From an uncultured Lachnospiraceae bacterium (GTDB lineage Bacteria > Bacillota > Clostridia > Lachnospirales > Lachnospiraceae), in assembly GCA_947630695.1 (NCBI GenBank), contig CANRIM010000002.1, positions 1,271-65,270 on the forward strand: DNA of 64,000 bases. The letters are read 5' to 3'. How positions within the stretch are numbered: position 1 is the stretch's first letter; each line of letters starts with the position of its first letter. Of the stretch, positions 5,970 to 29,073 are shown one piece after another. Both the position numbers and the translations under genes were made by a program. Under the pieces are notes generated by a model. That model saw nothing but the letters and a program-made list of their open reading frames with translations. It was not told the DNA's origin and made no database searches.

Positions 5970-5980
5970 ATTACAACTCC

Positions 5981-6904: not shown

Positions 6905-7001
6905 TAAATCCTCCAGATTCAGGATACTTACAATTTGTCCTTCGTTGTACCACCGTAATATGAGAATAATACGATACTGACCATTTCCTTCTGCATTAAT
7001 A

Positions 7002-8165: not shown

Positions 8166-9575
8166 TTAATCCATTTCTCCAAATTTTTTCTTATACTTTC
8201 TCTTAGCATAAACCGCCATTCCCGTTCCCAGAATGACCCAACCCGCTGCAATCGCCCATTCCTGTGGAGCAAGGGTACATCCGGAGCCAGGGATCAGGTA
8301 GAGAAAAACCATGATTGCTGCCATTACCGTTGCAATCAGACCGACTGCCATATATTTTTTTACTTTGTATGGACGCTCTAATTGCGGCTCCTTTTTTCTT
8401 AATATTAAAAAAGCGGCAGCCACCATGCAGTATGCTATGCAGCAGGCAAAACTCGCGGTGTCGGAAATCCATATAAGTGCCGATCTTCCCAAGAACAACG
8501 AAGCTATTGATAGTGCGCCAACAAGCACAAGTGCATTGGTAGGAGTTTTATGCTTTTTGTTCAATTTTGCAAATACTGTGGGAATCATGTGCGCCTCTGC
8601 CATTGAGAACAGCGCTCTGCTGCCGCCTATCATAAAGGAGTTCCAGCTCGTCAAAATGCCACATATTCCTCCGATAATGAGTATTTTCGCCATAACTTCG
8701 CTTGAAAACGCTTTTGCCATTGCTTCAGCAGTCACTAAACCGTTTGACCCAACAGAAGTGCTTATATCCTTCTCAGTCATCACATATCCGACCGAAAAAA
8801 CCACAAGCCCATAAAACAGGACTGCCAGCACTATTGACAGAAGCATTAACCTTCCTACTTTTTTTAGCGGGATTTTAATTTCTTCAGCAACTTGTGGAAT
8901 AACGTCAAAGCCGAACAGAAAGAACGGAGCTATAACTGCAATTGACAACACATTCTTTATCGAAGCAACTACTCCATCTCCAAGAAATATATGCCCATCA
9001 AGATTGCTCGGAGTTCCCCTGACAGCCGACGCTGCAACAAGGGATATGCCAACTGCTGCTATAATTATAGTTAAAACAGTTTGAAAAACCGCGGCGGCTT
9101 TTATTCCCCTTATATTTACATAGGTTATTAATACTGCGAATACTATACCTGCAAAGAGCCACGTCGCATATACGTCAAAGCCTGCAATGGTATAAAGATA
9201 CCCCTTCATAAATCCCGGAAAAATATACTGTATGACTGTAGGCAAAGAACATGCTTCAAAGCAGACGACACCTATGTAGCTCAATATCAAAAACCACGTG
9301 CATATAAACGACCCTACCGGTCCGAAGGCTCTTAAGCTGAAAACTCTTTCTCCGCCGACCTGAGGAAGCGCCGTGGTCAGTTCCGCATATGTAAGACCCA
9401 CAAAATATATCATTATTCCGCCGATGACAAAACCGAGTACTGTTCCGCCTACGCCGGCTCTTGACAGCCAGCTTCCGGTTGACACTACCCAGCCCCAGCC
9501 TATCATCGCGCCGAAAGCGGTCACTAAAACATCAAGAGTATTCAACACCCTGTTAAACTTCGTTTTCTCACTCAT
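8166..9575 (-). CDS. APC-superfamily amino acid (or amine) permease
   Basis: 469-aa ORF with about 12 TM segments and G-rich helices (GAMIGWGWVVSTG...). Its architecture is typical of the APC family. Confidence 0.7.
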   Translation of the reverse strand: MSEKTKFNRVLNTLDVLVTAFGAMIGWGWVVSTGSWLSRAGVGGTVLGFVIGGIMIYFVGLTYAELTTALPQVGGERVFSLRAFGPVGSFICTWFLILSYIGVVCFEACSLPTVIQYIFPGFMKGYLYTIAGFDVYATWLFAGIVFAVLITYVNIRGIKAAAVFQTVLTIIIAAVGISLVAASAVRGTPSNLDGHIFLGDGVVASIKNVLSIAVIAPFFLFGFDVIPQVAEEIKIPLKKVGRLMLLSIVLAVLFYGLVVFSVGYVMTEKDISTSVGSNGLVTAEAMAKAFSSEVMAKILIIGGICGILTSWNSFMIGGSRALFSMAEAHMIPTVFAKLNKKHKTPTNALVLVGALSIASLFLGRSALIWISDTASFACCIAYCMVAAAFLILRKKEPQLERPYKVKKYMAVGLIATVMAAIMVFLYLIPGSGCTLAPQEWAIAAGWVILGTGMAVYAKRKYKKKFGEMD

Positions 9576-9592: not shown

Positions 9593-10723
9593 TCAGTACC
9601 TTTCCATTTTAGTGAGCTTGTACCACATAAACGACAGAAAAGGTATGAAATCCTTTCTTCCGCGGTATAGCTTTGCCTGTGCAGCTTTATACTGCTTTTT
9701 CCATTCTTTTTTGCTGATTATTCCTTTTTTGACCCTTACATCATAGTCGAAACATTCCGCCATAGCCTTGAAGTCAGTAGATATCTCACAATACCAATTA
9801 TCTGAAAATCTGCCTTTTTCAATCGCATTGCACCACAGCATAACCTGCGGCATACCTTCGACCGTTGTAATCCAACCAAGTACGGTATTCCTAAAATTAA
9901 TTTCGAGGAACCATAGCTGCCCATCCTGATCCACCATAAACTCAAACTCAAATATACCCTCCAGTCCTATTCTCTCAAGCATTCCTCTTGCCTTTTTATT
10001 AAAATCATCATTATGGCAGTTGCGAACGTTCCAATAGGGTGAATAATTGCCTTCTATGGCATATTCCTGACGGCACTCTTGAATCATGATAAAATTTTTA
10101 CCGTGATTTATTGATATTCCATCAAAAGAAACCTCATCGACCTTTTCTATAAACTTCTGTAAGATTATGTACTCACTCTTTATATCCTTATAAGCATTTT
10201 TAAGCTCATCCTCATTGTGACAAATCGATACAATACCCTTCCACTCGGCGCTGTATGAGTTTATTGCTTTTGTTATAATCGGATACTCAATATCCTCCGG
10301 TATTTCGCCGGTCTTCACTTTCCATGTCTTTGCTACGTTGAATCCATGCTTTGCGGCAAGGTCGCACAAAATATCCTTACTCATAAAATACTTGATTCTG
10401 CCTGCTTCTCCAGCGTTGTAAAAATAGAAATAATCCTTAAGCTCGTCATAGTGGCTGTCAAGTGCCATGACACTGACGTCATCTCCGGTTAATATAAACG
10501 ATTTTTCAGTTTTACTCTTCGCGTATTCAGATAGAATAAGCTTTATCCCATCCTCAGGAGAAGAAACAATGTGCTTTTTCTTTGTATACTTGCTGACAGT
10601 TGCCATCGGCGGGTCATTATGTACTGCAATAACGATCGACCTGATTCCCGCCTCGCCAAGGGTTCTTACAATACCGCAATGATTATAGTGGTCATGATTG
10701 CAAAGAACGATGTATTCTCTCAT
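9593..10723 (-). CDS. ATP-grasp domain ligase (carboxylate-amine ligase type)
   Basis: 376 aa with a C-terminal EGIFEFEFMVDQDGQLWFLEINFRN segment, the typical ATP-grasp Mg/ATP-binding strand. The N-terminal pre-ATP-grasp region reads VLCNHDHYNHCGIVRTLGEAGI. Confidence 0.6.
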   Translation of the reverse strand: MREYIVLCNHDHYNHCGIVRTLGEAGIRSIVIAVHNDPPMATVSKYTKKKHIVSSPEDGIKLILSEYAKSKTEKSFILTGDDVSVMALDSHYDELKDYFYFYNAGEAGRIKYFMSKDILCDLAAKHGFNVAKTWKVKTGEIPEDIEYPIITKAINSYSAEWKGIVSICHNEDELKNAYKDIKSEYIILQKFIEKVDEVSFDGISINHGKNFIMIQECRQEYAIEGNYSPYWNVRNCHNDDFNKKARGMLERIGLEGIFEFEFMVDQDGQLWFLEINFRNTVLGWITTVEGMPQVMLWCNAIEKGRFSDNWYCEISTDFKAMAECFDYDVRVKKGIISKKEWKKQYKAAQAKLYRGRKDFIPFLSFMWYKLTKMERY

Positions 10724-10745: not shown

Positions 10746-11408
10746 TCACAAAGAGAAGTTACTGTCAAAGCTCATTTCTTCCCTTAATATTTCAAACGCT
10801 TCTGCATATTTTTTCCCTATCTCATATCCTCTGAACCCGCATCTGCTATGTACTCCGACGATCCAGTCTTCTGCCCCAAATTTGTTATATTCTGATTTAT
10901 GTTCCCGCAGTGAAGCAATTTTCAAATCAATCGTACTTTCAATATCCACATACAACTGCGGCCGGAATGCCACATAAGAGCGTCCCGACGGCGTGATCGG
11001 TTCATAAAAAAATACCGTATTTTTTCTTCTCGCAGCAGCAATGGTTGAATTGCTCACCCCGACATGCGCCTGATGTGTATCAAACGGATGATGGGTGAAA
11101 ACAATATCCGGCTGGTATTCGCTTATGCAGACATCAATCGCATTGACAATATCGGATCGAAACGGAATATCTTTAGTCGGAAAGTCAAGAATCTCAATAT
11201 CCTGTACTCCAAGGGTTTGCAGCGCTTTGGTTCCCTCCTGTACCGCTATGTCATCTGAGCGCTGCACTTTTCCGGAAATATTCGTATATCCCGATTTACT
11301 CATAATCAAAACCTTAACCTGATGACCGCTTTGAATTGCCTTTGCCAAAGTTCCGCCACAGGCAATTTCTATGTCGTCAAGATGTGCTCCTACTGCTAAA
11401 ATTTTCAT
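10746..11408 (-). CDS. PIG-L/LmbE-family N-acetylglucosaminyl deacetylase
   Basis: AVGAHLDDIEIACGG (AHxDD) and HHPFDTHQAH (HxxH) zinc-binding motifs of the PIG-L family. Confidence 0.8.
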   Translation of the reverse strand: MKILAVGAHLDDIEIACGGTLAKAIQSGHQVKVLIMSKSGYTNISGKVQRSDDIAVQEGTKALQTLGVQDIEILDFPTKDIPFRSDIVNAIDVCISEYQPDIVFTHHPFDTHQAHVGVSNSTIAAARRKNTVFFYEPITPSGRSYVAFRPQLYVDIESTIDLKIASLREHKSEYNKFGAEDWIVGVHSRCGFRGYEIGKKYAEAFEILREEMSFDSNFSL

Positions 11409-12550
11409 TTGCTCATACCCTCTGTCTCTTTATATATTTCTTTCATTCTTTCGATTACAGCCGATTTTTCTCTAGGAAGTAATCGGGAATAGTTATCTTC
11501 AATAATCGCGTTCCGTTCTTCTTCGGTCATATTTTCTACGTTATGAATTGCCTGGATTAATTCTTCAACAGAACGATAATCAAATAAACAGCGCTTGTCC
11601 TTAACCAGATCCGTATTTCCACGAGACGCTGAACATATGACCATTATTTTGGAAGCAATGGCTTCCATAATAGCCCTGGGAAGCCCCTCAAAATCTGTAA
11701 GATGAACGAAAACGTCGGCAATTTGAAGGATTTCGGTTATATCTGTTCTATAGCCAAGAAGTTTCACACAATTATCAAGTCCATTATCCCTAATATACTT
11801 CTCATACTCATCTTTCAAAGGTCCAATGCCGCAAACTATATACTTATAATTGCTATTGCTTAGCTTCTGTAACGCCTTGATCATCAATATATGATTTTTA
11901 TAAACATTAACCTCACCAACTGAAACAAAAACTTTATCAGTAACGCTCAACCCTAATGAGGCTCGCTTTGCTGCCTTTTCTGCCTCAGACATTTTGTTTG
12001 GCTCAAATTTATTTAGGTCAATACCTACTCCCGGAACATATTCGATCTTTTTGGCATGCATATGATTTTTTGCAAATATATGGTCTTCTTCATTAATTGT
12101 GATTAGTACATCCGTCCAGTACGCAAGCAGCCATTCAACAGGAAAATAAAACAGCCAATTTTTCCTGGGAGCATTTTTACAAAAATGAAATCCATGCGCC
12201 TGGTAAATCACTTTTTTGACCTTACACTTTTTCCCTGCAAGCCTGCCAACAACCCCTCCAATAGGTGTATTACAATGTATGTAATCAATTTTTTCTTCTC
12301 TTATAAGTTGTACGATTTGCCTGTATGCTTTTATATTTCGCGGATCATAGGGAGTACGTATAAAATCAATCTGATGAATTTTTATCCCATACTTTTTTTC
12401 ATCCGCCAAACGATCGGCCGGATCGTCATATCCTGACCAGTTTCCTGCAATATGAAATTCTATTCCTAACTTCTGAGCAGCAACAGAACTTGACAGTGCA
12501 AATGAATTAAATCTATATCCAACATTTCCAATAAATAGCAATTTTTTCAT
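11405..12550 (-). CDS. Glycosyltransferase family 4 (GT-B fold)
   Basis: 381 aa with the EGLPRAIMEA Ex7E motif. Its ORF overlaps those of the PIG-L deacetylase and the thioesterase. Confidence 0.75.
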   Translation of the reverse strand: MKKLLFIGNVGYRFNSFALSSSVAAQKLGIEFHIAGNWSGYDDPADRLADEKKYGIKIHQIDFIRTPYDPRNIKAYRQIVQLIREEKIDYIHCNTPIGGVVGRLAGKKCKVKKVIYQAHGFHFCKNAPRKNWLFYFPVEWLLAYWTDVLITINEEDHIFAKNHMHAKKIEYVPGVGIDLNKFEPNKMSEAEKAAKRASLGLSVTDKVFVSVGEVNVYKNHILMIKALQKLSNSNYKYIVCGIGPLKDEYEKYIRDNGLDNCVKLLGYRTDITEILQIADVFVHLTDFEGLPRAIMEAIASKIMVICSASRGNTDLVKDKRCLFDYRSVEELIQAIHNVENMTEEERNAIIEDNYSRLLPREKSAVIERMKEIYKETEGMSK

Positions 12551-13242
12551 CTGTTATCACCCTGTGACACCACACTGCTCACAATCTCCAGTATCTTCTC
12601 TCTTCCCTGCTCTTCCTCCAGATAAAAGTGATCTCCTTTCATCTGGAAAAAACTTACATTCTTTCCGTACTCCTTCCATTTTTCCATCACTTCATACCGC
12701 ATCAGCGTATCTTCCCTGCTATACAGGATCACCATAGGCACATCCAGGTTCTCTGCAGGAACATATCTGTACTCTGACAGAATCCTGTAATCATTTTTAA
12801 TGAATGGAAAAATGATTTCCTGAAATACTTTTGTATTTCTTTGCTTTTCCGGAAGACGATCATAGTCAATGATGTACTGCATCAAAGTATCATCGTTCCC
12901 GTACTTTTGATAGCGAGTGACATCCAGACATTCCGGCGGCTCACATGCCGAAATGAACAAAACATCCGGTTTCCTGGTCAGTTTTTGCGTCACCATCCAC
13001 GCAATCAGGCCACCCATACTGTGTCCAAAGAGGGCAAAATGGTCCGCCTGAACACATTCCATCTGCCGGATCACGTCATCGGTCAGCGCCTCTATACTCT
13101 CCGGTAAAGGTTCCTGATACCGGAACCCATGGCCGCTGTAATCAATTCCATGAAACCGAAAATTCGTATGCTGCCATTGTTTGTAAATCAGGGAACTTCC
13201 TCCGGCAAAAGGCAGGAGGAATACGTCTTTTTTTTCACTCAT
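12547..13242 (-). CDS. Type II thioesterase (alpha/beta hydrolase)
   Basis: LLPFAGGSSLIYKQW N-terminus and the GHSMGG nucleophile elbow, as in NRPS/PKS-associated TEII enzymes. Confidence 0.75.
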   Translation of the reverse strand: MSEKKDVFLLPFAGGSSLIYKQWQHTNFRFHGIDYSGHGFRYQEPLPESIEALTDDVIRQMECVQADHFALFGHSMGGLIAWMVTQKLTRKPDVLFISACEPPECLDVTRYQKYGNDDTLMQYIIDYDRLPEKQRNTKVFQEIIFPFIKNDYRILSEYRYVPAENLDVPMVILYSREDTLMRYEVMEKWKEYGKNVSFFQMKGDHFYLEEEQGREKILEIVSSVVSQGDNR

Positions 13243-14759
13243 ACATTCGTATACTTTTTCATTAAAGCCTTTCGGTCAATCTTCCCATTATCGTTATATG
13301 GAAATTTCTGAAGCCTATGATATACTGTCGGAACCATATATTTCGGTATTTTCTTAACAAGCTCTGCCCGGAAACTGTTGGCATTCACTGACTCATCCCC
13401 AACATAAACAAGTATGATTTCTTTTTTCATTGCATCATATATGACACAGGTATCCTGTATTCCTTCCAGTCCAAGCGCCGCAGTTTCGATCTCTCCCAAT
13501 TCGATACGATAGCCCATATGTTTGATCTGAAAATCTCTGCGCCCATCGTACATGATCTCACCGCGCTGATTGTAATGAACCAGGTCTCCGGTACAATAAA
13601 TCTTCTCTTCATATAGATGATTTAATGGATTCTGTATAAACACTTCCCTTGTCTTTTCGGGATTATTCCAATATCCAAGCGCAAGAGATGTTCCTCGGAC
13701 ACACAGTTCTCCGACTTTATCCGGCTCTGTGACCAACTCTCCATGATCCAACACCATAACATCTGTATTGGGACACGGCACCCCGATCGGCAGGGGTTCA
13801 TCGTCACTAAACTCCCGGTCAACGATATAATATGTACAATCTACGGTAATCTCTGTGGGGCCGTACAAGTTTGAATACAAAGCATCAGGTATATATTTAC
13901 GCCAGTAATTCAGATGCTTGTTCGGCATTACCTCTCCGGCAAAAAGTATTGTCTTCAGGCACTGACAATCCATTCTGCTTAAAACATCTGAATTCGCCAC
14001 ATTAATAAAAACCGACGGAACCCAGAAAATGGTATTGATCTGTTTTTCCCTCACATAATCCATAAGCTTTGCCGGAAATGAATAATAATGTTCCGGTATG
14101 ATATGCAAGGTTGCTCCGCAGCTGAGCATTAAATATATGTCCAATGTTGAATTATCAAAATAAAATGGTGCCTGATTTCCTATAATGTTTTTCTCAGAAA
14201 TGTCATAACATTTTTTCGCCCAGTCAATATAATCAATGATACTTCTGTGCGAAATAATGACACCCTTTGGAACACCTGTCGAACCGGAGGTAAACAGAAT
14301 ATATGCAATATCTGTATCTATTGTTTTTTCAAGATACAACGGACCCGGGTTCTCAGTTTCAACGGAATCTATATTAAGGAGAAGCTCTGCCTCCACACCG
14401 TGTTCTTTCAATGTCTCCGCATGTTTCTCATCGGTCAGAATTAAAGCCGGCTTCAGCGCATCCAGTATTCCTTTTACTTTTTCAAACGGAAAACTCACAT
14501 CCGTGGGCGTATAAAAATTTCCACTGTAAAGAATGCCCATAAAAGCACTGATCATCTTTACACTCTTTGGAAGATATACAAATACAGGTTTTTTGGAACA
14601 GCCCAGTTTTCCACTTATTGCTTTCCCAATCTTGCGCCCGTTATCTCTTAACTCCCTGAAGGTAATCGATCCATCTTTATCAATCACTGCTGCTTTGTTC
14701 GGAAAGGACTCAGCAGTTTGATCCAAATATCTGATAACAGAATTCTGCACTACTTCCAC
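13239..14759 (-). CDS. Stand-alone amino acid adenylation enzyme, DltA-like (carrier-protein ligase)
   Basis: ANL core motifs are present: YILFTSGSTGVPKG, FYFDNS (Asp consistent with an alpha-amino substrate), NLYGPTE, YCTGD, GRRDFQIKHMGYRIELGEIE and NGKIDRKAL. At 506 aa it is the size of DltA. Confidence 0.8.
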   Translation of the reverse strand: MEVVQNSVIRYLDQTAESFPNKAAVIDKDGSITFRELRDNGRKIGKAISGKLGCSKKPVFVYLPKSVKMISAFMGILYSGNFYTPTDVSFPFEKVKGILDALKPALILTDEKHAETLKEHGVEAELLLNIDSVETENPGPLYLEKTIDTDIAYILFTSGSTGVPKGVIISHRSIIDYIDWAKKCYDISEKNIIGNQAPFYFDNSTLDIYLMLSCGATLHIIPEHYYSFPAKLMDYVREKQINTIFWVPSVFINVANSDVLSRMDCQCLKTILFAGEVMPNKHLNYWRKYIPDALYSNLYGPTEITVDCTYYIVDREFSDDEPLPIGVPCPNTDVMVLDHGELVTEPDKVGELCVRGTSLALGYWNNPEKTREVFIQNPLNHLYEEKIYCTGDLVHYNQRGEIMYDGRRDFQIKHMGYRIELGEIETAALGLEGIQDTCVIYDAMKKEIILVYVGDESVNANSFRAELVKKIPKYMVPTVYHRLQKFPYNDNGKIDRKALMKKYTNV

Positions 14760-14864
14760 ACTCCTCTCACACCGCCGGTATCATATAATTTAGAATTATA
14801 ACTGGAAGATACTTTCTGATTTCTACCAGATAATAATGCCGTTGTTTCCATTGACTTGTAGCTC

Positions 14865-15095
14865 TTAGATTGTTCCGCCGCTTTTTCTGATCAGCGCAAT
14901 GATTGCCTCGGCAGAGCAGAAATTCTCCGGCACCACATCCAGACCGTCAATTTTCACATTGAACTTTTCTTCGATGGTTGACACCAGCGAGATGATATCA
15001 AAGGAGTCCAGAAAACCGTCCTCCACAAAATCCTCGCTCTCCGTAAAATCAAACTCCGGCCGCAGGTCTTTTAAAATCTTATAAATTTCTTCCAT
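14865..15095 (-). CDS. Carrier protein, DltC-like (phosphopantetheine attachment site)
   Basis: 76 aa, acidic, with an LDSFDIISL serine motif, located directly downstream of the adenylase partner region. Confidence 0.7.
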   Translation of the reverse strand: MEEIYKILKDLRPEFDFTESEDFVEDGFLDSFDIISLVSTIEEKFNVKIDGLDVVPENFCSAEAIIALIRKSGGTI

Positions 15096-15118
15096 GTTTT
15101 TTCTCCCTGAGATTTTCT

Positions 15119-15907
15119 TTAGATAATAAAAATATAATTATAGAGATTTTCTCTCTTGTAATTCCATTTATTCATATACAAATTTAAGGCAGGCCGGTTA
15201 TCTGCCTTACACCACAACGTGAAGCTTTTAAAATCTTTATGGATGGAAAAATAACTTTTCATCAGTTCGTTTCCGAATCCTTTCCCGCGAAAAGCTTCGT
15301 TCACACAAATCATCCGTACATATGATGTCTTTCTCATATCCTCGAATATCAGAAAGCCGGCCAACTGGTCGTCCTCGCGAATTCCGATCACGCTCTTTGA
15401 CACAAGAAATTGTTCTAATTCAGCATCTGTTGGAATACGATCTCCGATTGGCATAAATGTTCGATCCATCAGGTTCCGCAATTCTTTGTGATTCTTTTCC
15501 GTACAATAAAAATACGCCTGACTAGCCGATTCCGATGGTATTCCACTGCTTCTGAGTCTTTCATACGTTACAACTGCTCTGCAAGCAATCATGGTGTTGA
15601 AATCATAATCGCCCGGTTCTCCCCTGGTAACAACCTCAATAACCATCGTATCCGGACTTGTTTCCTTTATTTTTTCAATCTCATGCACCCATTCAAAATC
15701 ATCAGCGTAAAAAAATAGCTTTAGGTAATCGCTTTCATTTACCAGCATAAGAAGTGCCTGCTCTGAGGAATAGCAGGTAATCCTGTCTGCTTTCAGCCAT
15801 TCCTCCATACTGTCCGGCTGAAAATAACAATTGGAATATTTGTATCTGTTTTTTATGGTCTCAAGATATAACTGATAAATCTGTTCCTTACCGGTGATTT
15901 TCTCCAT
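15119..15907 (-). CDS. GNAT-family acyltransferase (C-terminal GNAT domain)
   Basis: C-terminal VNEAFRGKGFGNELM (the Q/RxxGxG/A acyl-CoA binding motif). Confidence 0.65.
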   Translation of the reverse strand: MEKITGKEQIYQLYLETIKNRYKYSNCYFQPDSMEEWLKADRITCYSSEQALLMLVNESDYLKLFFYADDFEWVHEIEKIKETSPDTMVIEVVTRGEPGDYDFNTMIACRAVVTYERLRSSGIPSESASQAYFYCTEKNHKELRNLMDRTFMPIGDRIPTDAELEQFLVSKSVIGIREDDQLAGFLIFEDMRKTSYVRMICVNEAFRGKGFGNELMKSYFSIHKDFKSFTLWCKADNRPALNLYMNKWNYKRENLYNYIFII

Positions 15908-15915
15908 AACGCATC

Positions 15916-16986
15916 CTACAACTTCGTCTCTATTTCCTTACAAAAATCCATCTTTCCCAGCTGCATTACAATTGCGCCCCACGTCAGACCGGAACCAAAT
16001 GCAGAAAGGCAGCAGTAATAAGTTTTTTCCGTCATCTCCTGCTTCAAGTTATGGGTGATTACAGTAGGAATGGATGCCCCGCTGGGATTTCCGTAGTTTT
16101 CCACGACATTCATAAATAGCTTCTCATAAGGAACATTTAACTTGTCCGCCAGCTTCTGAAGCATGAACTTATTCGGCTGATGGAACAGATAATAATCAAT
16201 CTTTTCTTGCTCCACCCCATACGATTTGAACAAATCTTCCAGCATCGGAGGTACTTCTCTCTGAACAAAATTGAATACCTCCGCTCCATTCATATGCAGA
16301 TTGTCCAGACATCGCTTATTGCCGTCATCCGCTGCCACCATCTCTGCTGTTTCTGCAGAACTTGGCATTGCAAATCCGCCCGCAGGGATTTTCAAACAAT
16401 CCCGATTTGCCCCATCTGCCATTAAGCGGAAAATAATCTCTTCTCCTTCAGGATCATTTTCTACTATGGTCACGGTTGTTACATCACCCACCAACGGGAA
16501 ATCATTCCGATCATGCTTCGAAACTTTATGGCTGAGAATGTCCGAATTAAAAAGAACCACTTTCTTGTCTTTCATATAATCCAGAAGCATAAAAGACTCC
16601 ATAAGTCCCAGCAGAAATCCACAGCAGCCCTGAGGCATATCGATACACAACACATCCTGCGGAAGATCGCACTTTCCGTGAATGATATTACTCATTTGCG
16701 GAAGGAAATAATCCGGAGACAATCCTACGACGATAACTGCTCCAATTTCTTCTCGTCTGACTTTTCCATTATTCAGCAGATAATTCAGTCCCTCTACACA
16801 AAAATCAGACGCCGTACTGGAATCCTTCGCCAGCCTGTGCTTGTTAAATCCCATTACTTTTTTCAAACGCTTTGTCTGTTTCTCGGGAAAATCGTAGTTA
16901 CCTATCTCGTCATCAAAGTAACTTTCCGTCTCCGGAAGAACCGCCAATATTCCGCTGATTCTTTTATTTCTGAAAACTGCATCCAT
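15916..16986 (-). CDS. 3-oxoacyl-ACP synthase III family (FabH-like KASIII)
   Basis: Cys-His-Asn triad contexts: MPQGCCGFLLGL, YLFHQPNKF and YGNPSGASIP. Confidence 0.75.
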   Translation of the reverse strand: MDAVFRNKRISGILAVLPETESYFDDEIGNYDFPEKQTKRLKKVMGFNKHRLAKDSSTASDFCVEGLNYLLNNGKVRREEIGAVIVVGLSPDYFLPQMSNIIHGKCDLPQDVLCIDMPQGCCGFLLGLMESFMLLDYMKDKKVVLFNSDILSHKVSKHDRNDFPLVGDVTTVTIVENDPEGEEIIFRLMADGANRDCLKIPAGGFAMPSSAETAEMVAADDGNKRCLDNLHMNGAEVFNFVQREVPPMLEDLFKSYGVEQEKIDYYLFHQPNKFMLQKLADKLNVPYEKLFMNVVENYGNPSGASIPTVITHNLKQEMTEKTYYCCLSAFGSGLTWGAIVMQLGKMDFCKEIETKL

Positions 16987-17071
16987 TGATTATAACTTCA
17001 CACGAAAAAGAAGCGTGTTTCCCTTTCTTATACTAAAACTCATTTGACCCAATGTTATGTAAATATTAATT

Positions 17072-17827
17072 TTAGAAATTGATATATCCACCATCGGCAT
17101 ATATCTCTCTTCCTGTGATCATACGGGAGGCATCGCTAAGCAAGAACAAGATAATATCTGCAATATCCTCCGGCTGTTCCAGTCCAAGTACAGATTTTTT
17201 TATAAATAAATCAAACTCTTCCTTTGTCTTATCTTCGAACGATTTCTCCAACATCTTTGTGTTGACACTTGCGGGCATTACCGTATTGATCCGAATATTC
17301 TTTTCTGCCAGTTCAATGGCCATTGAAGTAACCATGGTATTCATAGCTGCCTTTGTAGCGGCATATATGCCCTGACATTTTTGCGGAACCCTTACGGCCA
17401 GAGAAGAAACCCCTACGATGCTTGCTCGATCGTGATATTTTCTTTTAGACAGTAAGCTCACCATTTCCGCAAATGCGTAAAGGTTAACCGTCATGCTTTC
17501 ATCCATGTTTGTCTTATTTAAAAGCGCAACGGGCAGGATCTTTGCAATTCCAGCACAGTAGACTAATCCGTCGATCTTATGACCATCACTGACAATGTCA
17601 TCAAAAATCTCCTTATAGCCGCCGGATTTGCTCAAATCCTTTACATAAAAAGCATGTCCGTTCCCGTGCAGACAGGGTTTTACATCTTCTTCCTGCTCCT
17701 TATTCAATACGATAAGACAAACTTCGGCTCCCTGTTCGGAAAGCCTTACGGCAGTTGCTTTGCCAATTCCCGAACCCGCGCCAGTCACAATATATCTTTT
17801 TCTGCTGAAATCAAACGGATTCCACAT
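17072..17827 (-). CDS. Classical SDR, FabG-like 3-oxoacyl-(ACP) reductase
   Basis: VTGAGSGIGKA cofactor motif and YAATKAA (YxxxK). Confidence 0.75.
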   Translation of the reverse strand: MWNPFDFSRKRYIVTGAGSGIGKATAVRLSEQGAEVCLIVLNKEQEEDVKPCLHGNGHAFYVKDLSKSGGYKEIFDDIVSDGHKIDGLVYCAGIAKILPVALLNKTNMDESMTVNLYAFAEMVSLLSKRKYHDRASIVGVSSLAVRVPQKCQGIYAATKAAMNTMVTSMAIELAEKNIRINTVMPASVNTKMLEKSFEDKTKEEFDLFIKKSVLGLEQPEDIADIILFLLSDASRMITGREIYADGGYINF

Positions 17828-17890
17828 GATATTCCTCCTCTGTATCTATCGATAAAGAAAAAGCATATGCCATATAATGCAGCGATCCAT

Positions 17891-18109
17891 TTATTCCATC
17901 ATTGCAAGTATATCCGCCACTGTTTTTGCATCTTTCAGTGTCCCGCCTGACACGCTTTTATGAAATTGTTCATCCATCATGGCTATAATCGATAAAGCTG
18001 TAACAGAATCCCACTCTTCATAATCAGCAAGATTATCTTCTGGCTTCAAAGTTCCCTCATCTAAATCCATGCATTCTTCAATCAAACCAAGTTTTTCTTT
18101 TTCACTCAT
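17891..18109 (-). CDS. Acyl carrier protein
   Basis: 72 aa, acidic, with EEWDSVTALSII (DS phosphopantetheinylation motif). Confidence 0.7.
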   Translation of the reverse strand: MSEKEKLGLIEECMDLDEGTLKPEDNLADYEEWDSVTALSIIAMMDEQFHKSVSGGTLKDAKTVADILAMME

Positions 18110-18156
18110 TCTTCTATCTCCTTTTTTATTAGAACTATGACATTATTGACTGTTGT

Positions 18157-18378
18157 TTATACAATCAGTTTGACAATATCTGAAACTGTTTTTACTTTTT
18201 TCAGTGTTCCTCCCGGTAACACTTTATGGAATTGTTTGTCAACAGCTGCAATCACTGTTAATGCCGTAAGCGAATCCCATTCTTCATATTCTGATAAACT
18301 ATTTTCCAGCTCTAAAGTTCCTTCTTCCAGATCCATACACTCTTCAAGTAACGAAATGATTTCATTTGCCTTTTCCAA
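18157..18378 (-). CDS. Acyl carrier protein (tandem paralogue)
   Basis: 73 aa with EEWDSLTALTVI. It is clearly paralogous to the neighbouring ACP. Confidence 0.7.
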   Translation of the reverse strand: MEKANEIISLLEECMDLEEGTLELENSLSEYEEWDSLTALTVIAAVDKQFHKVLPGGTLKKVKTVSDIVKLIV

Positions 18379-18395
18379 TTAAATTCACCTCAAAT

Positions 18396-20036
18396 TTAAA
18401 ATTTTCTGAATCTCCTGTATCTGTTTTCAATCATTTCGTTCTTGCTTTGTTTGTCCATTTGCGTAAGAAACTTTATGATTTCCTGTCGCATATACTTAGA
18501 AATCTTACTGATGTTTTCTTTATTTGCCCCTCCAAACTCCGGGATTATTTTATCTATCACACCGAGATCCCTAAGGTCTGTGGCAGTCATTTTCATTTTT
18601 TCCGCAGCCTCAGAGGCACGGCTTGCATCCTTCCACAAAATAGAAGCATACCCCTCGGGGGACAAGATAGAGTACGTCGCGTTTTCAAGCATCCAGACCT
18701 CATCTCCAACAGCCGTTGCCAGTGCTCCGCCGCTGCCCCCTTCTCCAATAATGATGGCAAGAATGGGTACTTTTATTGACGACATTTCATATAGGTTTTG
18801 CGCAATCGCCCAGCCCTGGCCACGTTCTTCTGCTCCCACGCCCGGATAAGCGCCCTGTGTATTTACAAATGATATGACAGGCCGATTGAACTTTTCTGCC
18901 TGTTTCATCAATCGAAGTGCCTTACGATATCCTTCAGGCATTGGCATTCCGAAATTTCTTTCAAGATAATCCTGAATGTTCTTTCCCCTGTAATCTGCAA
19001 TCACCGTAACCGGTTGTCCGTTTAATACAGCAATTCCTCCGACAATCGCACCGTCTTCCCCATATAACCTGTCGCCCTTCAATTCTACAAATACGTCAAA
19101 AATATTTTTAATATAATCGACCGATGTCGGACGATTTGGTCCTCGATTTTCTTTTACTTTCTCCCATACCGATTTTGAAGGCATGATTGAATTTTTGAGA
19201 TATCCAGATACCGAAGGCAGGAATCTTGTCCTCTTTTCAGTTATAAACGCTGTTTTTTCTGCACTGTTTTTATTTGTGATAACAAGGAATTGAATCATCT
19301 GGCGTATTCTTTTTCTTTGAACTATGCCATCGATCATTCCGTGTTGCTGAAGAAATTCCGATGTTTGAAATCCCTGCGGCAATTCTTCTCTGATCGTTTG
19401 TTTAATCACTCTTTTTCCGGCAAATCCTACGGTAGCGTTTGGTTCTGCCATGATCACATCACCGAGTGATGCAAAACTTGCTGTGACGCCGCCTGTCGTT
19501 GGATCTGTCAATATAGAGCAATAAAACAACCCTGCATCCGCATGTCTCTTAATCGCTGCCGCCGTCTTTTCCATCTGCATTAAGGAAATCATGCCTTCCT
19601 GCATCCGGGCGCCGCCGGAACAGCAGAAAATAAATACGGGAAGTTTTTCCTTTGTGCCTCTTTCAAAAAGAACTGCTACTTTTTCTCCAACAACATGGCC
19701 CATACTCGCCATTATAAAATTGCTGTCACATACACCGATTGCGATTTCCGATCCTAAAACACTGGCTTTTCCAATGATAATGGCTTCCTTCAATCCGGTC
19801 TTATTTCTTGCATTTTCCAATGTTTTTTCATATATTTCGTCATTCAGATAATTCTCTGTTTCCAGATCCGCTTCCCATTCTTCAAATGTTCCCTTATCTA
19901 CAGTCATTTCAATTCTTTCCATTGCCGGAATTCTGAAATGAAAGCCACAGGAATCACATATATATTTTTTCTTTTTCAAAGAAGGGAGATCAAATTCTTT
20001 TCCGCAGTTTTTGCAGCATACAACCTGATCAGACAT
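18396..20036 (-). CDS. Acetyl-CoA carboxylase carboxyltransferase, fused beta-alpha (AccD-AccA) polypeptide
   Basis: The N-terminus carries the AccD zinc ribbon (CKNCGKEF...CDSCGFHFRIPAMERIE). The C-terminal half is AccA-like (GGIAVLNGQPVTVIADYRGK...GAYPGVGAEERGQ). No accB or accC lies in the window. Confidence 0.75.
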   Translation of the reverse strand: MSDQVVCCKNCGKEFDLPSLKKKKYICDSCGFHFRIPAMERIEMTVDKGTFEEWEADLETENYLNDEIYEKTLENARNKTGLKEAIIIGKASVLGSEIAIGVCDSNFIMASMGHVVGEKVAVLFERGTKEKLPVFIFCCSGGARMQEGMISLMQMEKTAAAIKRHADAGLFYCSILTDPTTGGVTASFASLGDVIMAEPNATVGFAGKRVIKQTIREELPQGFQTSEFLQQHGMIDGIVQRKRIRQMIQFLVITNKNSAEKTAFITEKRTRFLPSVSGYLKNSIMPSKSVWEKVKENRGPNRPTSVDYIKNIFDVFVELKGDRLYGEDGAIVGGIAVLNGQPVTVIADYRGKNIQDYLERNFGMPMPEGYRKALRLMKQAEKFNRPVISFVNTQGAYPGVGAEERGQGWAIAQNLYEMSSIKVPILAIIIGEGGSGGALATAVGDEVWMLENATYSILSPEGYASILWKDASRASEAAEKMKMTATDLRDLGVIDKIIPEFGGANKENISKISKYMRQEIIKFLTQMDKQSKNEMIENRYRRFRKF

Positions 20037-20047: not shown

Positions 20048-20776
20048 TCAGACATGTTTAATTAAGTTATAAGTCAATCTTCTTATTCTTAGTCCGAACA
20101 TCATATGCAGCTTCAGCATCTGGAAATTATTTGACGATACCCCGGAGATATATCTCCTTCCTCCCAGATCAAATACTGCTTTTAATGTAGTATAAGCGTT
20201 GGCAAAACCTAGTCCGCTATTCAAATAATCTGCAAAAAGCCCGCCTAGAAATCCATCGAAATAATTGCCCTTATTGATTACAATACTAAAACCAACATCC
20301 TCTCCATCATATTCCGTAATGATCATTTTCGCGTTTCCGGACGCAAGGACATCCTGTGCCCAAAATGCATAGCGCTGTCCTGCTATTTTCTGTGAGAAGT
20401 ACGGATCCAAAGCCACTTTGTCTGTTGAAAATATGTACCCGTTTCTTATTTCATCAATCACTCTCTTTGTTTCTTTGTCACTTCCGAAATGATACCCTGC
20501 TCTTTCTATCAACTTCGCACACATAGCCGGAGGCTTTGGTTTTTCAGACAATTCCATTTCCGTCTGAATGTTTGTCTCCATAAACTGGAAACCTTCCTTC
20601 TGTAATGCAAGAAGTACATCCACTCTCCCGGCTAATACTTTTGCAACAAAATATTTCTCATTTCTATTGTGTATTATGTTAAGTACCTCATCTACAGAAT
20701 CATTCTTTCCAACTTCAATTTCAAAACATTCCACACCTACATTCCGTTTTTCCCACACAGCTTCCACTGTTCTCAT
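20048..20776 (-). CDS. GNAT-fold N-acyltransferase, WecD (TDP-4-amino-sugar acyltransferase)-like; tentative
   Basis: 242 aa. Its layout resembles my recollection of WecD: an N-terminal non-GNAT domain followed by a C-terminal acyltransferase domain. It sits between the PglC-like transferase and the acyl-building genes. This is a by-eye similarity only. Confidence 0.4.
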   Translation of the reverse strand: MRTVEAVWEKRNVGVECFEIEVGKNDSVDEVLNIIHNRNEKYFVAKVLAGRVDVLLALQKEGFQFMETNIQTEMELSEKPKPPAMCAKLIERAGYHFGSDKETKRVIDEIRNGYIFSTDKVALDPYFSQKIAGQRYAFWAQDVLASGNAKMIITEYDGEDVGFSIVINKGNYFDGFLGGLFADYLNSGLGFANAYTTLKAVFDLGGRRYISGVSSNNFQMLKLHMMFGLRIRRLTYNLIKHV

Positions 20777-21430: not shown

Positions 21431-22678
21431 TCAGGCGGAAGCTGCTCCCACTTCACAATCCTCAATGATATAATCCTTTACAATGTCCTGATACTGTTCC
21501 ACCACATACCCAACATCCGCATCGCTCAGGCAGGTATGCAGCGGCAGTGTGATCTCATTCGCAAAATATGCATAGGCATTGGGGTAATCTTTGATATCAA
21601 ATCCCAGATTCCGGTACGCCGTGTGCATGGGCAGCGGCTTGTAGTGCACATTGGTGGCTACGCCCCGCTCTGCCATCCTGCAAATAATTTCGTTTCTTTG
21701 CTCCGGTGTAATCCCCGGCACCCTGGTAATGTACAGATGTCCCGAAGATTCATAAAAATCTGTATAGTGTTCCGGCGTCTGTATCCCCAGAGGGTGAAAC
21801 GCCGCATCGTATTTTTCGATGATTTCTTTTCTGCGCTGCAGCATGGCCGGATAGCGTTCCAGCTGTTTCAGGCCGATGGCCGCCATGATATCCGTCATAT
21901 TGCACTTGTAATACGTTCCCGCAATGTCATATTCCCACGCTCCCAGTTTTGTCTTGGCCAGCGCATCCTTGGACTGCCCATGCAGGCTGAACAACTGCAG
22001 CTGATGATAGATATCTTCGTCGCTGATGCCCGGAATCGTTCTCCAGGTCAGCGCGCCGCCCTCTGCGGTGGTAAGATTTTTGACTGCATGGAAGCTGAAA
22101 CTGGAGAAGTCAGCAATGCTGCCTACCATTCTGCCATGCCACTTTGCGCCAAAAGCATGCGCAGTATCCGAACAGACAACGATTCTTCCGATTGCCTTTT
22201 GAATGTCATTCGCGGGTTGAAACAATGACTTTTTTCGATTTACAATTTCATAAATCCTGTCATAATCACAGGGAATTCCGGCAAGATCAACGGGAATAAT
22301 CGCTTTTGTCTTTGCACTGACAGCTTTTTCAACTGCATCATAATCCATTTCCAAACTGTCAGGCTGCGTATCAACTAAAATAAGTTTTGCTCCAACATGG
22401 CAGACAACAGAAGCGGTTGCTGTATACGTGTAAGCCGAGGTTATTACCTCGTCGCCTTCACCTATTCCCAAAATTCGAAGCGCCATTTCCGCACATGCCG
22501 TCTGGGAATTCAGGCAACAAGCCTTTTTCACGCCTATGTAATCCGTAATTCTTCTTTCAAGCTCCTTGACTCTCGGGCCTGTCGTTATCCAGCCTGAACG
22601 AAGCGCTTCTGCAACTTCATTTATCTCTGCCTCCGAAATATCCGGTGGTGAAAATGGAATAACTTTTTTATCTACCAT
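21431..22678 (-). CDS. DegT/DnrJ/EryC1/StrS-family PLP-dependent sugar aminotransferase
   Basis: 415 aa with FSFHAVKNLT (PLP-lysine context) and an N-terminal IPFSPPDISEAEINEV region. It is the first gene of the locus. Confidence 0.8.
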   Translation of the reverse strand: MVDKKVIPFSPPDISEAEINEVAEALRSGWITTGPRVKELERRITDYIGVKKACCLNSQTACAEMALRILGIGEGDEVITSAYTYTATASVVCHVGAKLILVDTQPDSLEMDYDAVEKAVSAKTKAIIPVDLAGIPCDYDRIYEIVNRKKSLFQPANDIQKAIGRIVVCSDTAHAFGAKWHGRMVGSIADFSSFSFHAVKNLTTAEGGALTWRTIPGISDEDIYHQLQLFSLHGQSKDALAKTKLGAWEYDIAGTYYKCNMTDIMAAIGLKQLERYPAMLQRRKEIIEKYDAAFHPLGIQTPEHYTDFYESSGHLYITRVPGITPEQRNEIICRMAERGVATNVHYKPLPMHTAYRNLGFDIKDYPNAYAYFANEITLPLHTCLSDADVGYVVEQYQDIVKDYIIEDCEVGAASA

Positions 22679-22976: not shown

Positions 22977-23258
22977 ATGGCAAAAGTAAGCACAAATATC
23001 AGTCTCGATCCGGAATTGAAAAAAGCCAGTCAGGAACTTTATTCGGATCTGGGTTTGGACTTAAGCACTGCAATCACTATTTTTCTCAAACAGTCACTTC
23101 GCGTACAGGGACTACCCTTTGCTGTTACCAAAGAAAATCCTAACGCCGAAACCATTGCAGCAATGAATGAGTACTACGAAATGAAAGCACATCCGGAAAA
23201 ATATAAACGATATACCTCTTTTCAGGATGCTATGAAGGATGTATTAGCCGATGCTTAA
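22977..23258 (+). CDS. dinJ: RelB/DinJ-family antitoxin
   Basis: 93 aa. The N-terminal ISLDPELKKASQELYSDLGLDLSTAITIFLKQ ribbon-helix-helix region is typical of DinJ. It overlaps the toxin gene by 8 nt. Confidence 0.8.
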   Translation: MAKVSTNISLDPELKKASQELYSDLGLDLSTAITIFLKQSLRVQGLPFAVTKENPNAETIAAMNEYYEMKAHPEKYKRYTSFQDAMKDVLADA

Positions 23259-27650: not shown

Positions 27651-27677
27651 TCATTTATCTGCTGTAAGGAGGTGTCT

Positions 27678-29039: not shown

Positions 29040-29073
29040 ATTTTATAAGAATTGCAATTTATGGAGGCACCGT

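Follow-up and report, generated by a model that had tools for sequence, protein, structure and literature searches.

A carrier-protein cassette with a dedicated KASIII, probably building an amino-acid-containing acyl group, adjoins an independent PIG-L decoration module in a Lachnospiraceae surface-polysaccharide operon

The antigenicity of bacterial surface glycans, their recognition by phages and their immune signalling are dominated by the non-sugar N-acyl groups that their amino sugars carry, and to our knowledge the genes making anything beyond acetyl on these sugars are mostly unassigned. A minus-strand locus from an uncultured Lachnospiraceae bacterium (contig CANRIM010000002.1 of assembly GCA_947630695.1; the window, in what follows, is the whole stretch of 64,000 nt that was analyzed) raises the question of what its carrier-protein genes build and to which amine the product goes. 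A first-pass annotation had described eleven genes, comprising an AccD-AccA carboxyltransferase fusion, two acyl carrier proteins (ACPs), a FabG-like short-chain dehydrogenase/reductase (SDR), a KASIII, a GNAT, a DltC-like carrier, a DltA-like adenylase, a type II thioesterase, a GT4 and a PIG-L deacetylase, as one assembly line whose product would be placed on a sugar amine freed by PIG-L. Calls of open reading frames (ORFs), together with the Pfam and NCBIfam scans by which gene families were assigned in the window, bore out these genes, their positions, their strand and their tight packing (Table 1). The reading given in that annotation is partly supported, right in its general idea but with the boundaries of the unit and the acceptor amine misplaced: the window holds a Wzx/Wzy-type surface-polysaccharide operon with two independent decoration modules adjoining, and the eleven genes are a juxtaposition of these two separately conserved modules.

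With the window KASIII (hereafter KAS-A) as anchor, one genome per species was scanned, and 476 genomes contained a relative. The best 80 loci of these 476 genomes, fetched with 10-kb flanks, made up the comparison set; their contents were determined by tblastn and ORF clustering, and 54 of the 80 had full flanks. These loci span Lachnospiraceae, other Clostridia, Paenibacillus, Helicobacter, Flavobacteriaceae, Bacteroidales, Fibrobacter, Treponema, Synergistaceae and Flexilinea. By tblastn, both KAS-A and the small carrier CP76 were found in 80/80 loci and the adenylase (ADE) in 76/80, the four negative loci being contigs of 3.2-4.8 kb. The SDR was present in 64/80 loci by tblastn (46/54 of those with full flanks), the ACP in about 49-61 of 80 (tblastn and ORF clustering; 57-61 by tblastn) and a GNAT of ~265 aa in 57 (ORF clustering). 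Recurrent partners also included a metallo-beta-lactamase-fold hydrolase (39 loci, at the position of the window thioesterase), an AAC(3)-like N-acetyltransferase (35 loci; not in the window), a formyltransferase-like protein (20 loci), PglD-like transferases (17 loci), FabD (9 loci) and a 514-aa carboxyltransferase (6 loci), and a second, distant KASIII ("type B", 23-36% identical) was seen in 34 cases in an ACP-KAS-SDR arrangement. The eleven genes did not recur as a block: the AccD-AccA fusion was found in four loci counting the window (ORF clustering; AccDA matches in 8/80 by tblastn), the alpha/beta-hydrolase thioesterase in the window and L011 only (ORF clustering; 1/80 by tblastn) and the GT4 family in six loci (ORF clustering; 2/80 by tblastn), while PIG-L, the window-type ATP-grasp ligase and the permease were found in none of the 80.

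Recognizable glycan genes, flagellin-Maf-NeuB islands included, accompany the cassette in 47 of the 54 full-flank loci, and the remaining seven lack a family-labelled glycan gene within 10 kb. These results support the view that the adenylase-CP76-KAS-A cassette is a dedicated acyl-building set inside glycan loci. The first-pass annotation had already given the carrier genes this role, and the opposite case that it had set out, a separate cluster that occurs elsewhere without glycan genes, is not what the comparison returned.

The reciprocal comparison comprised 83 PIG-L loci, that is, three long contigs with close homologues (L085-L087) and 80 metagenome loci, and none of the 83 contained a cassette gene, so that the postulated link between PIG-L deacetylation and re-acylation from a carrier failed in both directions (0/80 and 0/83). 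PIG-L has >120 homologues or clusters at 79-90% identity, and it carries the AHxDD metal motif, with GAHLDD and the histidines of HPFDTHQAH invariant in 19 homologues. Its commonest upstream neighbour is GT4 (15 loci), and three kinds of gene follow it: an Orn/DAP-decarboxylase-like gene plus a PylC-like ATP-grasp, the latter second downstream of PIG-L in 16 loci; a 245-aa family; and the window-type ATP-grasp, first or second downstream in 12 loci. By eye, the 245-aa family is possibly WbqC-like. In L135 PIG-L is followed by the ATP-grasp (59% identity) and the APC permease (74% identity), and a BCCT transporter takes the equivalent place in L085. The scaffold DegT - small phosphoglycosyl transferase (PGT) - [variable] - GT4 - PIG-L - ATP-grasp is found in L085, where the variable slot holds a PglD-like acetyltransferase, an ATP-grasp and a HAD hydrolase, and in L086, where it holds a GNAT, a pyridoxal phosphate (PLP) enzyme and an ATP-grasp; in L087 DegT directly precedes GT4-PIG-L and the PGT lies further downstream. 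The window slot holds a 242-aa protein (U242) and the carrier cassette. The separate conservation of the PIG-L scaffold and of the cassette indicates that the window is a juxtaposition of two modules, and that GT4, PIG-L and ATP-grasp belong to a separate conserved module, not to the cassette. The GT4 - PIG-L - ATP-grasp - transporter arrangement, separately conserved in glycan loci of the Lachnospiraceae type, suggests that a freed glucosamine (GlcN) amine is aminoacylated and then perhaps decarboxylated, with the APC permease as the probable substrate supply for the ATP-grasp step. We found no characterization of a PIG-L-type decoration pathway of this kind in the literature.

KAS-A is the only condensing enzyme in the window and has >3000 homologues. 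In an alignment to E. coli FabH (C112/H244/N274) the Cys/His/Asn triad is invariant in 79 KAS-A sequences, and the protein scores below the cut-offs for housekeeping FabH (TIGR00747, 144.9 against 292.1; NF009519, 201 against 436). The best PDB match is the uncharacterized 4EFI, and PqsD (3h76) matches with E 3.7e-15. Malonyl-supply genes (AccDA, another carboxyltransferase or FabD) turn up repeatedly in loci with KAS-A as their sole KAS, among them L003, L011, L022, L030, L039, L044, L050, L051 and the window. From this occurrence, together with the full triad, KAS-A is predicted to be a real condensing enzyme. The family also has a specific insertion, ETAEMVAADDGNKRC, at residues ~213-225 (window protein numbering), with no counterpart in E. 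coli FabH and directly before the region aligning to FabH 205-213. The position of FabH R249, which we take to be the ACP-docking arginine, is invariantly Phe in KAS-A, and that of T37 invariantly Met.

The adenylase is 506 aa long from a GTG start (503 aa from the ATG start of the gene caller) and, as the first-pass annotation had deduced from its FDxS aspartate, it is of the amino-acid type: the aspartate (FYFDNS) and the C-terminal lysine (NGKIDRK) are both present, and TIGR01733 scores above its cut-off. All main classes of the adenylase family retain D235 and K517, and the ten-residue codes, these two residues included, fall into discrete classes, such as DNLFLALVDK (the window and 10 others; 15 with close variants), DIFFWALLDK-like (~50), DIQYMGVVNK, DMLFLGMGTK and DNLFLCLDVK. 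The conserved D235/K517 and the discrete codes indicate that alpha-amino acids are used, different ones in different loci. The substrate of ADE would hence be an alpha-amino acid, in a pocket that does not appear to be the D-Ala pocket of DltA. A specific substrate was also sought from the ADE code, which gave no confident match to the known codes considered. The best PDB matches of ADE are adenylation domains of non-ribosomal peptide synthetases (NRPSs); the DltA structure 3fcc also matches, with E 5.7e-63, and no operon ORF matched an NRPS condensation (C) domain as a partner. CP76, which usually lies directly upstream of KAS-A in the cassette loci, shows weak matches to DltC and to AmcB ACP. 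Two Helicobacter loci (L055, L056) contain three adenylases (codes DIFFWAMLDK, DNLFIALVDK and DVAYCGIVAK) beside one KAS-A, which points to the use of several amino acids there, or to an acyl group resembling a short peptide.

The remaining proteins of the cassette are compatible with dedicated roles. The tandem ACPs are 55% identical to each other, and the 72-aa one is 90% identical to its copy in L011. The SDR falls below the FabG cut-off (TIGR01830, 132.6 against 297.75) and is the orthologue of the SDR in an ACP-SDR-(AAC3)-adenylase-carrier-KAS-A sub-cassette. The fusion protein scores above the NCBIfam cut-offs for AccA models and reaches 304 bits for AccD, against a cut-off of 317; it is probably an accessory malonyl-CoA supply, outside the conserved core. 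The best matches of the GNAT262 family profile are the N-alpha-acetyltransferases Naa50, Naa30, RimI and VipF. The GNAT gene is largely complementary with the formyltransferase-like gene, which occupies the same position next to KAS-A and was counted from the locus tables in 10/18 GNAT-less loci against 8/~45 GNAT-containing loci. We propose that GNAT262 may cap the alpha-amine of the carrier-bound amino acid and that the type II thioesterase may be an editing or carrier-regenerating hydrolase. Other assignments were considered and rejected: a malonate decarboxylase (the serine motifs of the ACPs are of the ordinary phosphopantetheine kind, and the corresponding models reach only ~1e-9), an aryl-polyene or type II polyketide synthase cluster (no ketosynthase/chain-length factor pair and no dehydratase) and the thioesterase as the only release step to a free metabolite.

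A candidate for the transfer step is U242, which matched no Pfam or NCBIfam family. An alignment-based AlphaFold (AF2) model (pLDDT 91.9) had as its best PDB fold match in Foldseek the TDP-fucosamine acetyltransferase WecD (2fs5, E 1.6e-14, TM 0.73/0.78). The family comprises at least 517 clusters at E <= 1e-30; its members stand directly before an ACP in 10 KAS-A loci, and no homologue was found in the 83 PIG-L loci. U242 adjoins DegT and the PGT in the window, L011, L168 and L170, and the order DegT - PGT - N-acyltransferase is kept in L011, L021, L031, L085, L086, L168 and L170. Among the contexts of distant U242 homologues, L170 (DegT - PGT - U242 - ACP - glyoxalase-like - FkbH-like - glycosyltransferases) looks like a glyceryl-ACP module in which U242 is the only acyltransferase, and in L168 the order is DegT - PGT - U242 - SDR - 80-aa protein - AMP ligase - thioesterase - LuxE - LuxC; the context is less clear in L169 (28% identity to U242), with a GT2 and a FabA-like gene at the contig end. 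That U242 is usually flanked by carrier cassettes in the inspected contexts would imply an acyl-carrier donor rather than acetyl-CoA, and from its fold and context we assign U242 as a candidate acyl-carrier-dependent N-acyltransferase for the amine made by DegT. The DegT protein matches the PseC (E 2.2e-90) and ArnB (E 2.5e-74) models, both below cut-off; its family is present in 24 cassette loci and also heads the scaffold in L085-L087. L011 has, stacked with its KAS-A cassette, a further carrier cassette (positions 12006-17474), with an ACP, a non-amino-acid AMP ligase (code AGRYYSAGVK) and, both by sequence appearance, an iron alcohol dehydrogenase and an 833-aa LuxE-LuxC-type fusion. A similar LuxE/LuxC set stands alone beside U242 in L168, where LuxE and LuxC are Pfam-annotated. 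Transfer of the carrier-built group to a sugar amine, as first proposed, thus keeps a candidate enzyme attached to the cassette, and the amine concerned is likelier to be the one made by DegT than one freed by PIG-L; we hold acylation of the DegT-made amine via U242 to be reasonably likely.

Together, these comparisons are best accommodated by a scheme in which the carrier cassette fills, between the initiating PGT and the next glycosyltransferase, a slot that contains a simple PglD-type or GNAT acetyltransferase in related loci, and in which it would provide a non-acetyl N-acyl group for the 4-amino sugar made by DegT (Module 1, positions 20776-12547, fed by DegT). The part that we regard as most probable is that the acyl group built by the cassette contains an amino acid and is meant for a sugar amine. 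We infer seven steps for this module. The adenylase would activate an alpha-amino acid and load it onto CP76; GNAT262 would cap its amine, which would presumably prevent lactam formation; KAS-A would take the aminoacyl group as primer and condense it with malonyl-ACP, the tandem ACPs carrying malonyl and the extended product and AccD-AccA, with the biotin carboxylase, biotin carboxyl carrier protein (BCCP) and FabD of the host, boosting the malonyl supply; the SDR would reduce the 3-oxo group to give a 4-acylamino-3-hydroxyacyl-ACP; U242 would transfer this acyl group to the 4-amine of the nucleotide sugar; the small PGT would then place the sugar on the lipid carrier, starting the repeat unit; and the type II thioesterase would clear mis-loaded carriers. 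In Module 2 (GT4, PIG-L, ATP-grasp and permease, positions 12550-8166), a second N-acetylhexosamine (HexNAc) would be added and its acetyl group removed, the freed amine probably being amidated with an imported amino acid by the ATP-grasp ligase. Amino-acid-primed malonyl condensation has a precedent in PqsA (adenylase), PqsD (KASIII) and PqsE (metallo-beta-lactamase-fold thioesterase), the same triad. The linear route is favoured because KAS-A consistently occurs with the adenylase and the carrier, usually directly adjoining the latter. Likewise, the minimal flavobacterial cassettes (L062, L064, L065), with an adenylase, a formyltransferase in some, a carrier, KAS-A, an ACP and one PglD-like transferase, fit a linear route that starts at the carrier and leads via KAS and then the ACP to the sugar. 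We put the probability of the linear route, with a 4-acylamino-3-hydroxyacyl group placed on the sugar amine via U242, at roughly 0.4; its central step, the amino-acid-primed condensation by KAS-A, is as tentative as the route itself. More tentative still is the wider generalization that KAS-A represents a new KASIII class extending N-capped aminoacyl-carriers with malonyl-ACP, whose statine-like 4-acylamino-3-hydroxyacyl groups a WecD-like family attaches to the amino sugars of capsules, O antigens and flagellin glycans; if true, interchangeable adenylase specificities would generate glycan diversity.

Comparison with known systems helps to place the locus. In Vibrio cholerae O1, tetronate is the acyl group on the 4-amino group of perosamine, a 4-amino-4,6-dideoxy sugar, and the 471-aa WbeL has an ATP-binding domain (PMC3441752). 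As in our loci, a dedicated carrier-protein/AMP-ligase cassette in the O-antigen cluster builds a non-acetyl acyl group, and a LuxE/LuxC-type set of this sort is the one that neighbours the U242 homologue of L168 and that, in L011, is stacked with the KAS-A cassette; unlike the window, the tetronate set has no KASIII, second carrier or amino-acid adenylation, and the acid is reduced, not chain-extended. Apart from WbeL, this comparison relies on what we take to be the gene-level composition of VC0248-VC0252 (wbeK-O / rfbK-O). With the Pqs system, most cassette loci share the triad of adenylase, KASIII and metallo-beta-lactamase-fold hydrolase; an amino acid (anthranilate) primes malonyl condensation there, and PqsD is a detectable structural relative of KAS-A. 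The Pqs enzymes, in contrast, use CoA thioesters and yield a free metabolite, and the window has an alpha/beta-hydrolase thioesterase in place of the metallo-beta-lactamase-fold one. As for stand-alone NRPS-type adenylation enzymes, ADE scores above the TIGR01733 cut-off and has Asp235 and Lys517, but it lacks a C domain as partner.

The labels DltA-like and DltC-like hold as a resemblance, since DltA structures are homologous to ADE, and not as membership of the Dlt system. Both systems pair a stand-alone adenylase of similar size with a small dedicated carrier for the decoration of a cell-surface polymer, but ADE is below the DltA equivalog cut-offs (TIGR01734, 321.2 bits against 559.85; NF003417, 319.9 against 476), as is CP76 for DltC. 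The D-Ala-selecting cysteine of DltA is Cys268/269 in B. cereus (PMC8972799), and the position, mapped by motif and not by structure, is Ala (FAGE) in the window and in most classes. Additionally, the window ORFs scanned include no membrane-bound O-acyltransferase (MBOAT, as DltB) or DltD, with an MBOAT in only five other loci, and the window cassette is cytoplasmic and KASIII-linked. It shares with type II fatty acid synthesis (FAS) a KASIII with the Cys-His-Asn triad, but its KASIII and SDR fall below the FabH and FabG equivalog cut-offs, and FabD, FabZ, FabI/K, FabF, AccB and AccC were not noted among the operon ORFs. WecE/WecD and PglE/PglD offer a parallel for the sugar side, with a DegT aminotransferase, an N-acyltransferase acting on the new 4-amine and then a phosphoglycosyl transferase; U242 has the fold of WecD, although it is only ~15% identical, and in L085, L021 and L031 this slot is filled by PglD-like genes. 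Module 2 recalls mycothiol, bacillithiol and teicoplanin synthesis in its adjacent GT4 and PIG-L, followed by a ligase candidate (ATP-grasp) and a transporter. It differs in that its proteins score far below the thiol-pathway cut-offs (PIG-L on BshB1, 83.7 against 182.5; GT4 on BshA, 58.4 against 273.7, and on MshA, 32.7 against 462.5), in having an ATP-grasp instead of MshC or BshC, in that its proposed acceptor is a lipid-linked glycan intermediate, and in its independence from the carrier cassette. The window locus thus appears to be neither a Dlt system, nor a housekeeping FAS module, nor a bacillithiol or mycothiol pathway. In the clorobiocin/coumermycin (CloN4, N5, N3, N2, N1, N7) and butirosin 4-amino-2-hydroxybutyrate (AHBA; BtrI, J, K, H) pathways, a carrier-loaded amino acid is tailored and delivered to a sugar, in the case of CloN by way of a second ACP, to which a KASIII-like protein first passes the group. 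These are antibiotic pathways, unlike the window, and use an ester linkage (CloN) or an ATP-grasp loader (Btr) and no malonyl supply genes.

Several observations weigh against the linear route. We know of no described bacterial glycan with a 4-acylamino-3-hydroxyacyl group, despite the wide distribution of the cassette. KAS-A keeps the FabH acyl-CoA-binding residues R151, N247, G209 and F213, which makes an acetyl-CoA primer possible, and no co-variation was visible between KAS-A columns and adenylase specificity class, the signal being dominated by phylogeny. The donor of U242 could be plain acetyl-CoA, the formyltransferase-like gene could act on the sugar amine and not on the aminoacyl amine, and the AAC(3)-like protein is a superfluous third acyltransferase in this scheme. 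A 4,6-dehydratase (PglF/CapD-type) and FabD, like AAC(3)-like, formyltransferase-like and PglD-like genes, were not found in the 64-kb window, and no biotin carboxylase, BCCP or phosphopantetheinyl transferase was noted in the family scans of the operon ORFs, so that several of the proposed steps depend on genes elsewhere. Finally, the SSEVYG motif of the SDR near the end of the operon (positions 4195-5268) could point to a 4-keto-pentose as the substrate of DegT.

The retained CoA-contact residues also favour a scheme of two joined arms, in which KAS-A condenses acetyl-CoA with malonyl-ACP, the SDR yields 3-hydroxybutanoyl-ACP, the adenylase separately loads CP76, GNAT262 puts the 3-hydroxybutanoyl group on the alpha-amine of the amino acid and U242 moves the product to the DegT-made sugar amine. 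This is the version nearest to the first-pass annotation; it gives a role to every window gene, with two N-acyltransferases for two amide bonds, and its type of product is established chemistry, N-[(S)-3-hydroxybutanoyl]-D-alanyl being the N-acyl group of 4-amino-4,6-dideoxyglucose (Qui4N) in E. coli O123 and Salmonella O58, going by entries in the reference list of PMC7685785; the E. coli O-antigen reviews consulted gave such structures, with no readable assignment of genes. We regard it as the main rival, somewhat less likely than the linear route, because it leaves the constant linkage of KAS-A to adenylase and CP76 unexplained, 3-hydroxybutanoyl alone being the commoner glycan substituent, and because the loci with a formyltransferase in place of the GNAT (L006, L026, L030, L062, L065, L071) and the minimal cassettes, with one sugar transferase, have no coupling enzyme; besides, the loci with type-B KAS (ACP-KAS-SDR) already have a candidate 3-hydroxybutanoyl module. 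If KAS-A did not condense at all, it might work as a CloN2-like transacylase from CP76 to the ACP, after which U242, or the thioesterase acting like CouN7, would put the N-capped aminoacyl group on the sugar. The parts match CloN/CouN one to one (adenylase, carrier, modifier, KASIII-like protein, second ACP, alpha/beta hydrolase), there are known amino sugars with N-acetyl- or N-formyl-aminoacyl groups, and the flavobacterial cassettes have no SDR within 10 kb. Such a shuttle is nevertheless improbable in view of the invariant Cys-His-Asn decarboxylation triad, the SDR in 46/54 full loci and the recurrence of AccDA, carboxyltransferase and FabD where KAS-A is the only KAS, which speaks for the use of malonyl.

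The route originally envisaged, in which GlcNAc is added by GT4 and deacetylated by PIG-L, its amine then receiving the carrier-built group, either directly or as a free acid released by the thioesterase and re-activated by the ATP-grasp ligase, seems to us improbable to a similar degree. The genes are contiguous and translationally coupled by 4-nt overlaps, a free acid could in principle pass from a thioesterase to an ATP-grasp ligase encoded after it, and a logic of deacetylation followed by acylation exists in teicoplanin and mycothiol synthesis; on the other hand, no cassette locus (0/80) has the PIG-L or the ATP-grasp, no PIG-L locus (0/83) has a cassette gene, GT4-PIG-L-ATP-grasp modules occur elsewhere free of carriers, and the cassette elsewhere accompanies DegT and PglD-like, AAC(3)-like or U242 transferases. 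Least probable by far is a lipid or small-molecule pathway that works on its own and just happens to lie in a glycan locus: the thioesterase or the metallo-beta-lactamase-fold hydrolase could release a free acid, and the seven loci without a labelled glycan gene would suit it, yet glycan genes accompany the great majority, the cassette lies inside operons between phosphoglycosyl transferase and glycosyltransferases and carries homologues of sugar-amine N-acyltransferases (WecD-like, PglD-like, AAC(3)-like), and genes for export or regulation of the sort typical in metabolite clusters were not seen. We retain the linear route, at the probability given above, as the working model.

The wider contexts of the cassette are varied. 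In L002, L004 and L006 it lies in nonulosonic-acid loci with flagellin, Maf-like (MptE-like domain) and NeuB/NeuA- or PseG-like genes, and in L005 and L007 with NeuA/NeuB-type genes; these loci imply N-acyl variants of pseudaminic or legionaminic acid. The C. jejuni genes Cj1303-Cj1308 (fabH2, acpP, 'amino acid activating enzyme') are, we presume, a possibly related set; in the literature searched, Cj1303/Cj1307 were mentioned as PCR targets only. A DltB-like MBOAT membrane acyltransferase adjoins the cassette in L003, L008, L022, L051 and L075, a hint that some organisms export the carrier-bound group and attach it outside the membrane, as in Dlt. Approximately 16 loci (L009, L016, L023, L028, L033, L034, L038, L040, L045, L047 and others) have an ArnC/GtrB-like GT2 with C-terminal membrane helices flanking the cassette, some of them with two small (~120 aa) membrane proteins resembling ArnE/ArnF, which suggests a route like that of 4-amino-4-deoxyarabinose (Ara4N), with the acylated amino sugar on undecaprenyl phosphate being flipped and added to an extracellular polymer. 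A full-text literature search returned no paper describing this gene set. The segment from adenylase to KAS gave no match at the nucleotide level against 5,426 E. coli genomes (blastn, distant mode), and tblastn against plasmids retrieved only a Paenibacillus cellulosilyticus locus (no annotation) and KASIII relatives of ~30% identity.

The operon itself extends beyond the eleven genes, with DegT, PGT and U242 upstream and the ATP-grasp and permease downstream, and forms a single minus-strand array of 23 overlapping or short-gapped ORFs from ~22678 to 653 (Table 1). Its G+C content is ~40%, against ~52% for much of the remaining window. Within the eleven-gene block, adjacent genes overlap by 4 nt (adenylase/thioesterase, thioesterase/GT4 and GT4/PIG-L) or are separated by 8-105 nt. 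A promoter/terminator scan gave counts near the shuffled expectation and no convincing internal terminator, and an Rfam scan of positions 1-30000 gave no match. The locus was found again in independent metagenome assemblies.

Table 1. Genes of the surface-polysaccharide operon, in order of transcription, with window coordinates and family evidence.
Feature	Position	Strand	Evidence or remark
DegT/PseC/ArnB-like PLP aminotransferase	21431..22678	-	first operon gene; PF01041 E 1.7e-91
PglC-type small phosphoglycosyl transferase (PGT), 198 aa	20773..21369	-	PF02397 E 9.5e-61
U242, 242 aa, candidate N-acyltransferase	20048..20776	-	WecD-like two-domain GNAT fold; without family match
AccD-AccA carboxyltransferase fusion	18396..20036	-	PF03255 E 1.9e-114; PF01039 E 3.1e-34
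ACP, 73 aa, first of tandem pair	18157..18378	-	PF00550 E 4.8e-6; WDS motif
ACP, 72 aa, second of tandem pair	17891..18109	-	PF00550 E 7.4e-7; WDS motif
SDR, FabG-like	17072..17827	-	PF13561 (adh_short_C2) E 2.5e-50
KAS-A, KASIII, 356 aa	15916..16986	-	PF08541 (ACP_syn_III_C) E 6.5e-22
GNAT262, N-terminal domain + GNAT domain	15119..15907	-	PF00583 E 2.7e-11; RimI model E 6.7e-8
CP76, 76-aa PP-binding carrier, DltC/PCP (peptidyl carrier protein) type	14865..15095	-	PF00550 E 1.1e-4; LDS serine motif
ADE, stand-alone amino-acid adenylation enzyme	13239..14759	-	TIGR01733 345.7 bits (cut-off 317.4)
Type II thioesterase, alpha/beta hydrolase	12547..13242	-	PF00975 E 1.2e-30
GT4 glycosyltransferase	11405..12550	-	PF00534 E 3.7e-30
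PIG-L/LmbE-family deacetylase	10746..11408	-	PF02585 E 4.8e-24; 85.7 bits (cut-off 28.2)
ATP-grasp ligase	9593..10723	-	weak ATP-grasp matches; likely partner of PIG-L
APC-family amino-acid (or amine) permease	8166..9575	-	PF13520 E 1.6e-45
LicD, two genes	7002-7793 and 5981-6904	-	Pfam/NCBIfam scans
IspD-like cytidylyltransferase	5253-5969	-	Pfam/NCBIfam scans
SDR with UXS/ArnA-like SSEVYG motif	4195-5268	-	overlaps IspD-like gene
GT2	3254-4198	-	Pfam/NCBIfam scans
Polytopic membrane proteins, apparently Wzy-like and Wzx-like	2102-3214 and 653-2071	-	

Towards the end of the operon, the two LicD genes, the IspD/TarI-like cytidylyltransferase and the overlapping SDR (4195-7793) probably form a CDP-alditol (ribitol-phosphate-type) or related phospho-substituent module for the same polysaccharide, in which the SDR may be a member of the CDP-alditol pathway or a supplier of a 4-keto sugar; the IspD-SDR pair is also present in L001 (54% and 36% identity). 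On the other side, directly upstream of the first operon gene and on the plus strand, lies a RelB antitoxin / YafQ-ParE toxin pair (22977-23526), also present in the metagenome copy L082. It is followed, on the plus strand, by three successive large serine recombinases (Resolvase + Recombinase domains; 340, 508 and 403 aa; 23880-27548) in a stretch of ~50-53% G+C, which points to a mobile element that has entered next to the glycan locus, at the place where relatives have a CapD/PglF-like dehydratase and LytR. Further on, also on the plus strand, a low-GC (~38%) defence-like island (27672-34586) contains an AAA ATPase with DUF4143, a 956-aa ResIII helicase-type protein, Abi_alpha (abortive infection) and an N6/N4 DNA methylase.

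There is precedent in principle for carrier-built N-acyl groups on amino sugars, in V. cholerae tetronate and butirosin, as there is for the logic of GT4, PIG-L and ligase, in mycothiol, bacillithiol and teicoplanin. What appear to be undescribed in the searchable literature are the adenylase-carrier-KAS-A core and its breadth, the U242 family and the modular slot. A compact cassette joins amino-acid activation to a dedicated KASIII in glycan and flagellin-glycosylation loci, with relatives in 476 species-representative genomes, and the U242 family is a candidate link from carrier-protein chemistry to sugar amines. The slot DegT - transferase - N-acylation module - GT4 - PIG-L is a site of module exchange in the loci of gut Lachnospiraceae. 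If the product is confirmed, hundreds of glycan loci of the gut microbiome could be better annotated, and a KASIII reaction of a new, carrier-dependent kind or a new substituent of glycans might come to light.

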